Assembly: GCA_001818365.1 (NCBI GenBank)
Contig: MHKK01000022.1
Span: forward strand, 5,636 to 46,204
DNA length: 40,569 nt
Origin: Candidatus Komeilibacteria bacterium RIFCSPHIGHO2_01_FULL_52_14
Lineage (GTDB): Bacteria; Patescibacteriota; Patescibacteriia; UBA1558; 2-01-FULL-52-15
Direction of reading: 5' to 3'
A program made the translations under genes and the position numbers. The notes under the pieces are model-generated. The model was not told where the DNA came from, searched no databases, and worked only from the letters and a program-made list of their open reading frames with translations. Position 1 is the stretch's first letter. The number at the start of each line of letters is the position of its first letter. Below, piece after piece: positions 4,844 to 39,117 of the stretch.

Positions 4844-5998
4844 ATGATCATGAAACGTTTAATCGGCATAGTAGCGGTTGCTCTTTCTCTAGTCGCTGTC
4901 CCGGACCTGCTTAAGGCGCAGGATGTGCAGCTAACGGCAGGGGCGACAATTGAAATCACCCTGACGAGCCCATCGGTCACCTATACCTTGAGTTCGACAA
5001 CAGGCATCAACGCTCTTGCGGTGAGCGACAGCACTCTGACCTTGACGCTTGATGCTGGCGATACCATCACGGTAACGCAGAACAATGGTTACGTGATTGA
5101 TAATAACTTAGGTGTTGGCACCAGTTGTATTGGCGCAATTACCCGTGCAACTTTTACCGCCAGCGTCATTATAACGTCAGGAGCAACGGCACAAGGCTGC
5201 CAGACCGGTGGGTCGGGGAGCCCTATTAGTGACGCGAGTATACGGATTAACAATGGGGCTTCGCAAACATCATCGAGAAATGTGACACTGAGCCTTCAGG
5301 CCGGCAATGCGAAGCAGATGATACTCTCGCACCTGGTTAATTTTGCTGATGCACAGTGGGAGCCGTACGCTGAAGCAAAAGCATGGACGCTGACGGACGG
5401 TTTAGGAGAAAAAAGAGTATACGTAAATTACTTGAGCACTGGAGGAGAGCAGTCGCAGCCAATGAGTGCGGTGATAACACTTACAGAGGGAGTAACTGCC
5501 GCTCCGGCACCAGACGGGTCGGTACCGTCATCACAACCCCAAGCAACTCAGACACCTGTGCTGCAACAGACGGGTGTTCCGTCGGAAGGTGCGCTGGTTA
5601 AATTACTCAATGATCCAAGAGTCTATCTCATCTCTCAGGGGTTGAAACGATGGATTCAAGATGAACAAGCATTTACACAGCAAGGGTATAGCTGGAGTAA
5701 TATCGTCGTGGTTTCTGATACAGCCTTGCAGCAGTATTGGGATGGACCGAGGATAGAGAGCGCGGTAGCAGCCGCTGCTTACAAATTTACGAGATATCTG
5801 GCGTCTGGCTCAGTGGGTACGGAAGTTAGTGCATTACAGAAGATCCTGAAGGCGTTGGGGTTCTTTCCGCAGCAGGTTAAGGAAACGGGATACTACGGAA
5901 CGACGACTCGGAGTGCTGTCATCGCTTTCCAAAAGGCACGAGGGATTACGCCTCTCGGCGTTGTCGGACCTCAGACCCGAGCAGCTTTAAATCGATAG
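4844..5998 (+). CDS. Secreted multidomain surface protein with C-terminal peptidoglycan-binding domain
   Basis: Signal peptide (..LLKA|QD); C-terminal LASGSVGTEVSALQKIL...GYYGTTTRSAVIAFQ...GVVGPQTRAALN matches the PG_binding_1 pattern. Start may be 4850. Confidence 0.85.
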   Translation: MIMKRLIGIVAVALSLVAVPDLLKAQDVQLTAGATIEITLTSPSVTYTLSSTTGINALAVSDSTLTLTLDAGDTITVTQNNGYVIDNNLGVGTSCIGAITRATFTASVIITSGATAQGCQTGGSGSPISDASIRINNGASQTSSRNVTLSLQAGNAKQMILSHLVNFADAQWEPYAEAKAWTLTDGLGEKRVYVNYLSTGGEQSQPMSAVITLTEGVTAAPAPDGSVPSSQPQATQTPVLQQTGVPSEGALVKLLNDPRVYLISQGLKRWIQDEQAFTQQGYSWSNIVVVSDTALQQYWDGPRIESAVAAAAYKFTRYLASGSVGTEVSALQKILKALGFFPQQVKETGYYGTTTRSAVIAFQKARGITPLGVVGPQTRAALNR

Positions 5999-7349: not shown

Positions 7350-9155
7350 ATGACTTCAAAACAGCTTAAGCATTTATACTTCAAATTCTTTCAGGATCGC
7401 GGCCACAAGCTGATCCCGTCGGCATCCCTGGTGCCGGAAAACGATCCGACGGTTTTGTTTACTCCTGCGGGTATGCACCCGTTGACGCCTTTTCTGATGG
7501 GTGAGAAGCATCCGCAGGGCACGCGGCTTGTTGATGCGCAGAAATGCATCCGTACCAGCGATATCGATGACGTGGGAGATGCGTCGCACCTGACTTTTTT
7601 TGAAATGCTGGGCAACTGGTCTTTAGGCGATTATTTCAAGAAAGAATCGATCGCGTGGAGCTACGAGTTTTTGACCGACAAAAAATATCTGGGATTTGAT
7701 CCGTCAAAGCTCTGGGTAACGGTATTTGCCGGCGAAGACGCCGTGTCTGGCCAGCCTGGCCGGCAGGCAGGCGGCAGGCAGGGGATTCCTCGCGACGAGG
7801 AATCGGCCGGCATATGGAAGTCGCTCGGTATTCCTGTCGAACGTGTCTTGTATTTTCCCCGTAAGGATAATTTTTGGGGGCCGGTCGGAGAAACCGGGCC
7901 GTGTGGTCCGGATACGGAGATTTTCGTCGATACCGGGAAAGATCCCTGCGGTCCGAACTGCGGGCCCGGATGCGGGTGCGGCAAATACTTTGAGGTGTGG
8001 AACAATGTATTTATGGAGTTCGAGCGGACGAAGGATGGGAGATACATACCGCTGAAGCAGAAGAACGTCGATACCGGCATGGGTGTCGAGCGTACCGTTG
8101 CCATGCTGGACGGTGCAAAGACGGTGTATGAAATAGATACGTTTCAGCCGCTCGTCAAAATGGTTCGCGAGCGCTCTGCGCAGTTTAACGAAAAATCGAT
8201 GCACATCATCGTGGATCATGTCCGCGCAGCCGTTTTTCTGCTCGCCGATGAACGCGGTGTCAAGCCCTCCAACGTCGATCAGGGATATGTTCTGCGACGC
8301 CTGATCCGCCGCATGATACGTCATGCGAAAATGATCGGCTTCGATCTGGACAATCTTCCCGAGCTCGCAAAAATCGTCATTCGCGAGTATCACGTGGACT
8401 ACCCTGAACTGGTCCGTAACGTTCGGGTTGTCGAAGAGGAGCTGATTAAGGAGAAAGACAAATTCCTGAAAACGCTTGAGCAGGGTATCAAGGCATTCGA
8501 AAAATCGACACGAAGCGGATCCATTTCCGGCAAGGACGCTTTCGTGTTGTTCTCGAGTTATGGATTCCCGCTTGAAATGGTTCAGGAGCTCGCCGCGGAG
8601 AAAAAGATCTCAGTCGATGTTGGCGGTTTCCAGCGGTTATTCGAGGAGCATCAGGAAAAATCACGTACTGCCGCAGCCGGAAAATTCAAAGGCGGTTTGG
8701 CCGATCACGGCGAGATGACGACGAAGTATCATACGGCGAACCATATGATGCTCGAAGCTCTGAAGCGCGTTCTCGGGCGGGACGTCGTCAATCAGAAGGG
8801 GAGCAATATTACCGCCGAGCGGCTTAGGTTCGATTTCACCTACCCGGGAAAAATGACAGCGGAGCAGATCAGGCAGGTCGAGGACATTGTGAACGGCGAG
8901 ATTAAAAAAAATCATCCCGTGCATTTTGAAGAGATGAGTGTTGCAGCAGCAAAACAGATTGGCGCAACTGGCGTCTTTGAACATAAATACAGCGATACGG
9001 TAAAGGTGTATTTTGTCGGCGACTACAGCACTGAGATTTGCGGCGGACCGCACGTTCAGAACACGAAAGGAATGGGGCTTCTTAAGATTGTAAAAGAAGA
9101 GGCAAGCTCCGCGGGCGTCAGGAGGATTAAGGCGGTCCTTACGCCGGACAAGTAA
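7350..9155 (+). CDS. alaS: Alanine--tRNA ligase, short form (catalytic and editing domains, no C-Ala)
   Basis: LFTPAGM, QKCIR, HLTFFEMLGNWS, GPCGPDTEIF, DTGMGVER, DHVRA, GYVLRRLIRR; editing motifs HTANH and EICGGPH; 601 aa. Confidence 0.97.
   Translation: MTSKQLKHLYFKFFQDRGHKLIPSASLVPENDPTVLFTPAGMHPLTPFLMGEKHPQGTRLVDAQKCIRTSDIDDVGDASHLTFFEMLGNWSLGDYFKKESIAWSYEFLTDKKYLGFDPSKLWVTVFAGEDAVSGQPGRQAGGRQGIPRDEESAGIWKSLGIPVERVLYFPRKDNFWGPVGETGPCGPDTEIFVDTGKDPCGPNCGPGCGCGKYFEVWNNVFMEFERTKDGRYIPLKQKNVDTGMGVERTVAMLDGAKTVYEIDTFQPLVKMVRERSAQFNEKSMHIIVDHVRAAVFLLADERGVKPSNVDQGYVLRRLIRRMIRHAKMIGFDLDNLPELAKIVIREYHVDYPELVRNVRVVEEELIKEKDKFLKTLEQGIKAFEKSTRSGSISGKDAFVLFSSYGFPLEMVQELAAEKKISVDVGGFQRLFEEHQEKSRTAAAGKFKGGLADHGEMTTKYHTANHMMLEALKRVLGRDVVNQKGSNITAERLRFDFTYPGKMTAEQIRQVEDIVNGEIKKNHPVHFEEMSVAAAKQIGATGVFEHKYSDTVKVYFVGDYSTEICGGPHVQNTKGMGLLKIVKEEASSAGVRRIKAVLTPDK
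7740..7782. repeat. Nested degenerate double copy of the CCTGCCTGCCGGCAGGCAGG palindrome, in-frame inside alaS
   Basis: CCGTGTCTGG[CCAGCCTGGCCGGCAGGCAGG]CGGCAGGCAGG; an intact copy of the palindrome sits at 38734-38753; removing 42 nt gives ...VFAGED-GIPRDEES. Confidence 0.8.
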
Positions 9156-38152: not shown

Positions 38153-38668
38153 CTACGCTGATGCTTTAGTTAACGTAAGCGCTTTGTGTATGATCGCAAC
38201 ACTATCAACCGGATTGAGGAATTTAAGAGCCTCAATCTTATCGAGATCGATCCACTCGGCAATTTTGGCATATGCTTTCTCGGTTTCGTCAAATCCGTCT
38301 GTCGAGAGCCGTCCTTTTACAAGAGTAACGGTATAGTAAATCAGTACGGTGTTTGCGGGTTGCGTGCTCAGTTTTGAGTATTTAGGATAAAAAAATGACG
38401 ATTCGCAGGCGATCAATTGTTGCGGTTGGACAGTGAACCCGGTTTCCTCAAGGAATTCTCGTACAAGACCTTCGTGTACCGTTTCATGCAGTTCCATGCC
38501 GCCACCGGGAAAATCGTACCCGTCCCACTGCGGCGAGAGAAGAATTTTATTATCTTTGATGAGTATGCCGTATACCGAAGGACGGAAGCGCAGTTCGCTG
38601 CTGTCGAATTCGTATGTCTTGCCGTCGATGTCATGGCAAATAACTTTTTTTGAATTTTTTGATGGCAT
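38153..38668 (-). CDS. Nudix hydrolase
   Basis: Nudix box GGGMELHETVHEGLVREFLEETG; ATG at 38668 (MPSKNSKK). Confidence 0.9.
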   Translation of the reverse strand: MPSKNSKKVICHDIDGKTYEFDSSELRFRPSVYGILIKDNKILLSPQWDGYDFPGGGMELHETVHEGLVREFLEETGFTVQPQQLIACESSFFYPKYSKLSTQPANTVLIYYTVTLVKGRLSTDGFDETEKAYAKIAEWIDLDKIEALKFLNPVDSVAIIHKALTLTKASA

Positions 38669-38720
38669 GAAGGTATTTTGGCAGATACTGGTTCTTTGGT
38701 CTAGTTCATTGAAATGGTCT

Positions 38721-38826
38721 GTCATTGCGAGCGCCTGCCTGCCGGCAGGCAGGAAGCGAAGCAATCCCGTTGAGATTGCCACGCCCCGCACTACTCGAAC
38801 TCGAGTAGTGCGGGGCTCGCAATGAC
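38721..38826. repeat. GTCATTGCGAG...CTCGCAATGAC element carrying two nested palindromes
   Basis: Perfect 11-bp terminal inverted repeats; inner CCTGCCTGCCGGCAGGCAGG (38734-38753) and GCCCCGCACTACTCGA-AC-TCGAGTAGTGCGGGGC. Confidence 0.88.
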
Positions 38827-38830
38827 GGAA

Positions 38831-38889
38831 TAAAAAACTCCCCGGCTCTCCTCCACTCACGTTGTTCGTGAATGGGATTGAGCCGGGGT
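38831..38889 (-). terminator. Extended intrinsic terminator
   Basis: CCCCGGCTC...GAGCCGGGG stem with inner TCACG/CGTGA, followed by AGTTTTTTA. Confidence 0.7.
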
Positions 38890-38904
38890 GGATACCCCGC
38901 GTCC

Positions 38905-39117
38905 TTAACGGACGTTGGGTCGAGCCGGGACGGTCCGCAAGCGGTGGTCGCCCCAGAGCAGGATGTTTGCCGCGATGAGAAACGCGAGGCTGATGCTGCT
39001 CACGGAGTACACCTCGACGGTTGACGTCGCGGAGAATAGGAACAGCAGACTTGCCGAGCCGCACGCTGACATGAGGAACTGCAGAGCGGTCAGATGGCGA
39101 GCGACGAAGCGTCTCAT
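38905..39117 (-). CDS. Small two-TM hypothetical protein
   Basis: AGAAAGGAG SD before the ATG; two hydrophobic segments; flanked by 14-bp direct repeats. Confidence 0.7.
   Translation of the reverse strand: MRRFVARHLTALQFLMSACGSASLLFLFSATSTVEVYSVSSISLAFLIAANILLWGDHRLRTVPARPNVR

Follow-up and report, generated by a model that had tools for sequence, protein, structure and literature searches.

A 42-nt in-frame insert in alaS of a Komeilibacteria genome is built from nested, degenerate copies of a 20-nt palindrome found across bacterial phyla

Results

An in-frame insert in a single-copy alaS gene

We analysed a 40,569-nt stretch of DNA (the window) from Candidatus Komeilibacteria bacterium RIFCSPHIGHO2_01_FULL_52_14, which spans positions 5,636 to 46,204 of the forward strand of contig MHKK01000022.1 in GenBank assembly GCA_001818365.1. 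The window contains alaS, which encodes a short-form alanyl-tRNA synthetase (AlaRS), and within alaS lies an in-frame insert of 42 nt that is the subject of this study. The assembly, referred to as G000, comprises 860 kb (0.86 Mb) in 62 contigs and has a completeness of 80%. Its host is an ultra-small, uncultured type of bacterium; the small-subunit ribosomal RNA (SSU) scored 1456 bits against the bacterial model vs 1010 against the archaeal one. Other genomes of the same order carry G numbers, G007 being the nearest relative genome, while C and L numbers denote contigs and loci. G000 holds 87 runs of N, two of which flank the window (C22:5529-5635 and C22:46205-46303), and since some repeats may be hidden in such runs the copy numbers given for G000 are lower bounds. 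The features at the alaS locus are the following.

7350-9155, plus strand: alaS, 601-aa short-form AlaRS, by open reading frame (ORF), translation, Pfam and PDB matches
7741-7782 (equally 7740-7781), plus strand: in-frame insert of 42 nt encoding AVSGQPGRQAGGRQ, by alignment to homologues
7741-7750, plus strand: outer palindrome copy, decayed left arm, CCGTGTCTGG, by sequence reading and alignment to contig C61 of G007
7751-7771, plus strand: inner palindrome copy, 21 nt, CCAGCCTGGCCGGCAGGCAGG, which is the 20-mer CCTGCCTGCCGGCAGGCAGG with one substitution (T3>A) and one extra G, edit distance 2
7772-7782, plus strand: outer palindrome copy, intact 11-nt right arm, CGGCAGGCAGG, by sequence reading
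7784-7804, plus strand: perfect hairpin (9-bp stem, 3-nt loop) formed by the codons for the conserved IPRDEES, starting 1 nt past the end of the insert

The alaS ORF matched PF01411 (tRNA-synt_2c, E=1.9e-130) and PF07973 (tRNA_SAD, E=5e-14), and AlaRS sequences in the PDB matched its product at E=1e-95. We found one match to alaS in the whole G000 assembly, indicating a single-copy gene. Rfam and tRNA scans over the window gave no match.

When the product was aligned with 23 AlaRS homologues, exactly 14 residues, codons 131-144 between D130 and G145, were missing from all 23. The closest homologues (80-82% identical) read VFAGED directly followed by GIPRDEES across the site. Because a G flanks the segment, two placements one base apart are equally good. 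Codon-level comparison with four relatives located the extra DNA between GAC and GGG, and the insert was also absent from all 15 relatives' loci at which a motif search located the site (the search did not locate it at 14 further loci). The original prediction, made from the letters of the window, had described an in-frame insert of 42 nt whose removal gives a normal AlaRS loop, and had expected homologues to show a 14-aa gap at this position. The alignment confirms the insert and shows the gap, and the sequence of the homologues is the one that deletion of the insert restores.

We then found that the insert persists in its lineage. All four members of the 90% protein cluster, which come from several sources, carry the same 14 residues, and these proteins are 97-100% identical and differ outside the insert, one variant being just 97% identical. 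Contigs assembled from three sequencing runs of three studies (X1, X3 and X5) cover the insert with 0 differences and no indel rows; they measure 8.4 kb and 5.9 kb in two of the runs and 189 nt in the third. An assembly artefact, named beforehand as one of the outcomes that would speak against the idea, is therefore not the source of the segment.

The insert consists of two degenerate palindrome copies

The inner copy was missed by a search that allowed 3 mismatches without indels, so the alaS copies are clearly degenerate. The inner unit splits the outer one into parts of 9 and 11 nt. The outer left arm keeps 7 of 9 arm bases plus one extra G, and the 11-mer of the outer right arm occurs 6 times in the genome vs about 0.27 expected. 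Aligned with a nested pair on contig C61 of G007, the alaS insert was identical at 35 of 40 bases and had two extra bases, and the T3>A variant (CCAGCCTG...) was also present in three G007 copies. The predicted fold of the insert has an energy of -24 kcal/mol vs -32 for the intact G007 pair. The edit distance of 2 and the match to the G007 pair bear out the proposal that the insert comprises a pair of degenerate palindrome copies, the one nested in the other. The unit had been put at about 21 nt, and this needs correction, as the family unit is a perfect palindrome of 20 nt.

The G007 codons for the same IPRDEES residues do not form the hairpin seen at 7784-7804. A stem of at least 9 bp within 30 nt was found at 0.3% of G000 control positions. 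That this hairpin served as the insertion target is speculation.

The 20-mer in G000 and a second copy in the window

G000 contains 3 exact copies of the 20-mer and 11 copies within 2 edits, and each of 10 second-order Markov genomes simulated as a chance control contained 0 copies within 2 edits. The alaS copy is the only one in a gene with family-level support; 10 of the 11 lie outside such genes. Four of the copies overlap no ORF of at least 60 aa; apart from the alaS copy, the others either share sequence only with ORFs that match no Pfam family or sit upstream of a NUDIX domain. Since only the alaS copy sits in a family-supported gene, preservation of the reading frame appears to come from selection and not from the element. 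This argues against a unit that preserves frame by design, as originally suggested together with a count of copies in coding sequences as its check.

A further copy lies within the window, inside a larger repeat that recurs in G000.

38734-38753, strand not assigned: palindrome CCTGCCTGCCGGCAGGCAGG of 20 nt, intact, in the intergenic region upstream of a NUDIX gene
38721-38826, plus strand: modular three-hairpin repeat GTCATTGCGAG...CTCGCAATGAC, with the 20-mer in the first of its variable hairpin slots
C5:3226-3320, C22:47168-47260, C58:957-1054 and C58:3015-3140: further copies of the modular repeat in G000

In the minus-strand ORF 38153-39064 the NUDIX domain spans residues 161-282, which places the 20-mer upstream of the likely start. 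The modular repeat is built of an outer stem (GTCATTGCGAG/CTCGCAATGAC), a central hairpin that is conserved (GCAATC...GATTGC) and a pair of slots with copy-specific hairpins, and its DNA fold at 38721-38826 reaches -47.7 kcal/mol (z = -9.5). Five complete copies and 29 half-sites are present in G000, and the four other complete copies hold different hairpins in the slot that the 20-mer fills here. The earlier description of an intact copy nested in another repeat is thus accurate. Translated, the modular repeat gives strings of the '...LAMT / ...ARNDK' type, which are common in metagenomic hypothetical proteins.

The 20-mer is shared by genomes of many phyla and by predicted viral contigs

Within the order, 38 of 61 genomes carry the 20-mer within 2 mismatches, at 0-51 copies per genome, with 19 copies in G007, 10 in G039 and 51 in G056. 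A reversed control sequence gave 0 copies in 60 of the 61 genomes and 1 copy in G044. We found no orthology of copies between genomes, the loci sharing nothing beyond the repeat itself. Variants marked by diagnostic changes are shared between genera: CCTGTCTGCCGACAGGCAGG is found in G000, G012 and G056, and CCTGCCTACC... is present in about 20 copies in G056.

The G056 copies show some features of their own. The loci examined in this genome are AT-rich. Its commonest form, CCTGCCTACCGGCAGGCAGG (about 20 copies), is asymmetric, and a sub-variant, CTTGCCTACC..., occurs in 5-6 copies. This subfamily structure resembles that of replicating elements. G056 copies are usually flanked by A...T, which extends the palindrome to 22 nt.

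Scanned for the exact 20-mer, one-per-species reference genomes yielded at least 120 stretches that carry it, with about ten phylum labels between them. Among these labels are Patescibacteria groups, Bacteroidota, Omnitrophota, Planctomycetota, Gamma- and 'delta'-proteobacteria, Bdellovibrionales, Thermodesulfovibrionales, Thermodesulfobacteriota and Chloroflexi, and four cultured isolates are among the matches listed. Another 35 stretches were found in predicted viral contigs, some of them with several copies. In-frame copies in other phyla typically read x-LPAGRQ-x, which corresponds to 21 nt. At locus L083, in a metagenome-assembled genome labelled Gammaproteobacteria, a nested pair lies in frame in dTDP-glucose 4,6-dehydratase, and at L075 a single copy lies in frame in a variable linker of FtsK. 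The exact 20-mer appeared in no paper among the searchable full texts, and literature searches for such elements in bacteria of the candidate phyla radiation (CPR) returned only unrelated titles and abstracts, on CRISPR-virus ecology, CPR genomics, gene essentiality in Sulfolobus and CRISPR editing; a wider search led to work on mitochondria and introns.

The original prediction called the unit mobile. Empty orthologous sites, shared subfamilies and identity across phyla speak for this part of the claim; mobility is what we infer from them, movement itself not having been observed.

In other CPR genomes, at L077:4041 and L099:2127 (also L092), the 20-mer interrupts an apparent tRNA D-arm region, with ...GTAGCTCAGTGGTAGA before it and GC... 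after it. The repeat at L099 is also overlapped by an open frame that matches GIY-YIG.

Nested copies and neighbouring hairpins

The architecture seen in alaS, an outer copy split 9/11 by an inner one, is better preserved on contig C27 of G000, on contigs C21 and C61 of G007, and at L083. The mirror form, split 11/9, was found at L080 and L104. The anatomy shows a preference for structured DNA, with copies lying within copies one base off centre. The suggestion that the unit re-targets its own hairpin is plausible in view of the recurrence of 9/11 pairs in other genomes, and it is from this anatomy that we infer it.

Five of 82 copies lie inside another hairpin (enclosing stem of at least 6 bp) vs 0.9% of control positions. 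With only these five, insertion into hairpin loops was rejected as a general rule. In G007, 11 of 19 copies have a stem of at least 6 bp within 30 nt vs 8% of controls, which may be due in part to their intergenic location.

Many copies in AT-rich genomes and viral contigs lie within runs of 7-nt tandem repeats. Loci with copies in or beside such repeats include L107, L112, L120, L131, L142 and L064, L209-L218 from G056, and the viral loci L221 and L250. Some copies are flanked by direct repeats of 7-14 nt, such as TAAAATT on either side in L213 and CCTCACC in L142.

Other inverted repeats were noted in G000. A tRNA gene at C46:12385-12520 is bracketed by a long inverted repeat (CCCGCCTGCCTTCG ... 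CGAAGGCA..GGCGGGCAGG) that resembles half of the palindrome, and similar brackets surround structured segments of 75-115 nt at C8:961-1047, C8:3410-3494 and C29:1862-1986. A separate family of palindromes, 38-41 nt long and with 16-19 bp in the stem, extends over the start of pilin-like genes at C22:3130-3167 (just upstream of the window), C27:2639, C44:7294, C47:6518, C55:1371, C56:974, C37:10854 and C24:25266. KSGAGF is encoded by the right arm and is followed at once by FTL(I/L)E..., which we take to be a type IV prepilin leader. Many pilin genes may thus have a conserved hairpin at their 5' end, with a possible role in regulation or recombination. The 38-nt palindromes in long G000 ORFs were rejected as further in-frame insertions, since they overlap the starts of pilin-like genes.

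The insert is predicted to form a disordered surface loop

An AlphaFold2 model of AlaRS, built from a 24-sequence alignment, had a mean predicted local distance difference test score (pLDDT) of 79.6. The insert is modelled as a coil in the catalytic domain, with strand 121-126 before it and helix 150-158 after it. The pLDDT falls below 50 for residues 133-142, and the neighbouring blocks reach 91 and 95. Mapped in this way, as had been advised, the site is a low-confidence coil with well-modelled flanks. AlaRS sequences from the PDB align across the site with a gap, and among relatives the length of the loop at this site varies by a few residues. The insert is in frame and contains no stop, and no matching take-off and landing codons were found at its edges. 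Most likely it is translated as a disordered (floppy) surface loop of 14 residues. The loop is probably neutral and without function.

No gene family consistently accompanies the repeat

The original prediction had noted that no mobilising enzyme is visible in the window, which we also found, and had proposed a search for genes for RAYT/TnpA-Y1 or GIY-YIG proteins flanked by the repeat. RAYT here denotes the transposases associated with repetitive extragenic palindromes (REP). The Y1/RAYT family (PF01797) has no match in G007, G039 and G056, three of the nine genomes with at least 10 copies. As it has none in G000 either, we rejected it as a required mobiliser.

Besides UvrC, G000 contains 8 small stand-alone GIY-YIG matches, mostly open frames of about 80-150 aa, among them the following.

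C22:2861-3073: small GIY-YIG match
C54:4915-5136: small GIY-YIG match
C4:2329-2541: small GIY-YIG match

Across the order there are 0-19 such genes per genome. None was found within 2 kb of the 11 G000 copies, and a hidden Markov model built from the 8 G000 ORFs matched within 2.5 kb at only 3 of 80 cross-phylum loci. GIY-YIG number and palindrome copy number gave a Spearman rho of 0.39 over 61 related genomes, taken without phylogenetic control, and genomes with zero palindrome copies carry up to 14 GIY-YIG matches. Not lying beside the G000 copies, weakly correlated and numerous in some copy-free genomes, GIY-YIG proteins are unconvincing as the mobiliser. Neither of the two proposed enzymes tracks the repeat. 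DUF559 was also set aside, having no match in 4 of the 9 high-copy genomes and a rho of 0.22. One G007 copy lies 80 nt from a DUF559 gene, which we treat as an anecdote. An autonomous version of the element was rejected as well: between the G000 half-sites lie no genes other than one for a tRNA, the remaining intervals being structured segments of 75-115 nt.

Among the viral contigs, two share a pair of copies 658 nt apart around an ORF that does not encode a nuclease and, from its N-terminus, may encode a lipoprotein-like protein. On a viral contig for which the retrieved loci hold six copies, and the stretch analysed four, nine of 10 ORFs have no Pfam family and the tenth has a below-cutoff match to a phage adaptor.

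Discussion

Our data suggest that the 42 nt in alaS are a fossil double insertion of a 20-nt non-coding palindromic repeat into a tolerant surface loop of AlaRS, a reading to which we give a probability of about 75%. The original prediction is thus partly supported: right in substance, wrong about the length of the unit and about frame preservation as an intrinsic property.

The events may be pictured as follows. A first copy would have entered the ancestral gene between codons D130 and G145, and a second would then have entered one base off the centre of the first, giving the 9/11 split; both insertions, one after the other, would have struck a hairpin-prone spot. As alaS is essential and present in a single copy, only events that add multiples of three (20 + 1) would survive. 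Both copies would have decayed afterwards, weakening the hairpin as well, and the ribosome would read through the segment as ...FAGEDAVSGQPGR... rather than joining D130 directly to G145. The family to which these copies belong is normally intergenic, clustered with other hairpins and common to many phyla and predicted phage contigs. Because the unit encodes nothing, it must be copied in trans, either by an enzyme or by a replication/repair process.

Several points weigh against this reading. The outer left arm is the weakest part of the nested structure and is weak evidence taken alone, and tandem duplication of 11 nt at the end of the inner copy could equally have produced the intact right arm. 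Such a duplication leaves the first 10 nt unexplained, and for this reason we prefer the nested structure. No regular target-site duplication accompanies the copies, direct flanks of at least 5 nt being present in 2 of 82. Close strains show no presence/absence polymorphism of the insert, so recent movement is undocumented. The coverage of the insert consists of assembled contigs, not raw reads, and one of the three runs may be the source sample. Translation of the segment is predicted; the four runs compared include no RNA run, and the RNA runs listed contain only 0.04 of the words. G000, at its completeness of 80%, has 0 matches to PF01797, and an all-against-all blastp comparison of 1443 ORFs within 2.5 kb of the 20-mer at the 80 cross-phylum loci gave no family present in more than 3 loci.

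We weighed four other explanations against the double insertion. The serious rival is that host replication or repair wrote the copies with no dedicated enzyme, either by template switching to an ectopic hairpin copy or by patch repair of a break, the nested forms arising by arm duplication and palindrome correction. We consider this unlikely, but it accounts for a good deal: no transposase tracks the repeat, target-site duplications are not regular, copies cluster by other hairpins as in G007, and the arms are internally repetitive (CCTG twice, with (CCTG)3 forms in G057). However, the asymmetric 9/11 pairs fit insertion of a whole 20-mer better than symmetric duplication of arms, and an identical 20-mer over about ten phylum labels and viral contigs needs either transfer of the template or a sequence-specific agent. 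Subfamilies with diagnostic changes look like copying from a master copy, a pattern that templated repair gives as well. It is very unlikely that the loop is instead a selected, functional addition to AlaRS, for example a contact with tRNA or a partner protein. The peptide is rich in Arg, Gly and Gln and is identical in all four cluster members despite differences elsewhere, but at 97-100% identity these proteins are too close for conservation to tell much. Moreover, the loop is confined to one species-level cluster, is missing in the 23 other homologues, is predicted to be disordered, and has a sequence dictated by the DNA of the repeat.

We give even less credence to a local origin, in which slippage of CAGG/CCTG-like motifs in place produced a loop that resembles the palindrome by mutational bias. 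The right end of the insert is an exact 11-nt tandem repeat (7761-7771 and 7772-7782), and the insert is not within 3 mismatches of the 20-mer unless indels are allowed. This idea is disfavoured, since the segment matches, within 2 edits, a 20-mer with 10 further genomic copies and 0 such matches in the 10 simulated genomes, agrees with the nested pair in G007 at 35 of 40 aligned bases and shares the T3>A variant with that genome, and since homologues have no low-complexity seed at the site. The least probable explanation is an assembly or binning artefact, or a segment removed by splicing or ribosomal bypass. The short X5 contig begins exactly at 7741, as contigs do at repeats, but the 8.4-kb and 5.9-kb contigs from the two other runs span the insert without differences and four protein variants from different sources carry it. 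As to removal, the segment is in frame, has no stop and lacks matching take-off and landing codons at its edges, and with a bacterial SSU archaeal bulge-helix-bulge splicing is not expected.

Beyond the double insertion in alaS itself, we tentatively propose, at somewhat short of even odds, that the 20-mer is one of the smallest mobile DNAs: it has no gene and does not vary between CPR bacteria, Bacteroidota, Planctomycetota, Proteobacteria and predicted phages. Copying would take place in trans, through some widespread activity of hosts or phages with a preference for the centres of hairpins and palindromes, the 20-mer's own among them; phages would carry it between phyla, and it would occasionally add new peptide loops to essential enzymes. 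If this is true, selfish DNA as small as 20 bases colonises very reduced genomes, a single-copy essential gene included, and is a source of new protein loops far outside Rickettsia. The interest of the system rests mainly on the cross-phylum identity and the missing enzyme: one exact 20-mer over about ten phylum labels and viral contigs, with no usual transposase tracking it, suggests a copying activity that acts on a defined DNA substrate. For annotation, LPAGRQ- or GRQAG-type peptides in metagenomic proteins would mark such insertions, not domains.

How does the 20-mer compare with known small repeats? Fungal mitochondrial GC clusters are short GC-rich hairpin elements that spread in AT-rich genomes, sometimes within coding regions; they are organellar, longer and unrelated in sequence to the 20-mer, and provide an analogy only. 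Miniature inverted-repeat transposable elements are a poor match, as the 20-mer has no fixed target-site duplication (2 of 82), no cargo-bearing version between the G000 half-sites and no recurring gene nearby. REP and REPIN sequences, which depend on RAYT (Y1 HUH) transposases, are described in passages of PMC3116915 and PMC3733652 as short, GC-rich, extragenic and clustered palindromes. The 20-mer is likewise GC-rich, mostly extragenic (10 of 11 in G000) and clustered, varies from 0 to 51 copies and occasionally lies in genes. In contrast to REPs, it has no GTAG/CGTC tag, begins with CCTG and ends with CAGG, is fully paired without a loop and has variable flanks. No Y1_Tnp match was found in G000, G007, G039 or G056, and REP families are lineage-specific whereas the 20-mer is identical across phyla.

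The closest known kinds are the small dispersed repeats (SDRs) of cyanobacteria, closest of all, and the Rickettsia palindromic elements (RPEs), the SDRs being compared by description only. The likeness to RPEs, which the original prediction had drawn, is fair as a way of behaving: RPEs lie in frame in unrelated housekeeping genes, and the 20-mer, too, is palindromic, looks selfish, lies in frame in unrelated genes (alaS, L083 and L075) and would be translated into added peptide where the fold allows it. RPEs are known from Rickettsia, measure about 100-150 bp and contain a conserved ORF or peptide module according to a passage of PMC10969869, and carry a CGTC tag at one end according to a passage of Di Nocera et al. 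(PMC3733652). With a unit of 20-21 nt (42 nt when nested) the 20-mer has neither the size nor the peptide module of an RPE. It also has no CGTC tag, the flanks of its copies show no constant tetranucleotide, and it is mostly intergenic and spread across phyla.

We find the likeness to SDRs to go further. Elhai et al. in 2008 reportedly presented the Nostoc SDRs as 'very small mobile repeated elements'. SDRs are associated with 7-nt tandem repeats, beside which the 20-mer also lies in other phyla and in viral contigs. The 20-mer differs in its hosts, which are CPR-type bacteria and those of about ten other phylum labels rather than cyanobacteria, in being a perfect 20-nt palindrome without a loop, and in lying in frame in an essential gene here. 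Both are units of about 20 nt (21-27 nt or so for SDRs), dispersed, without coding capacity and located in otherwise conserved sequence, as at the alaS site, which is empty in 23 of 23 homologues; both are thought to be mobile though far too small to encode anything. The Nostoc SDR reference is also cited in PMC3116915 and PMC2884548, as passages of these papers indicate. A passage of PMC4390886 describes SDRs as gene-less repeats of about 20 nt and places SDR5 between nucleotides 3 and 4 of the palindrome HIP1. Such precise insertion into a palindrome is what the copies of the 20-mer that split others 9/11 or 11/9 appear to share with SDRs.

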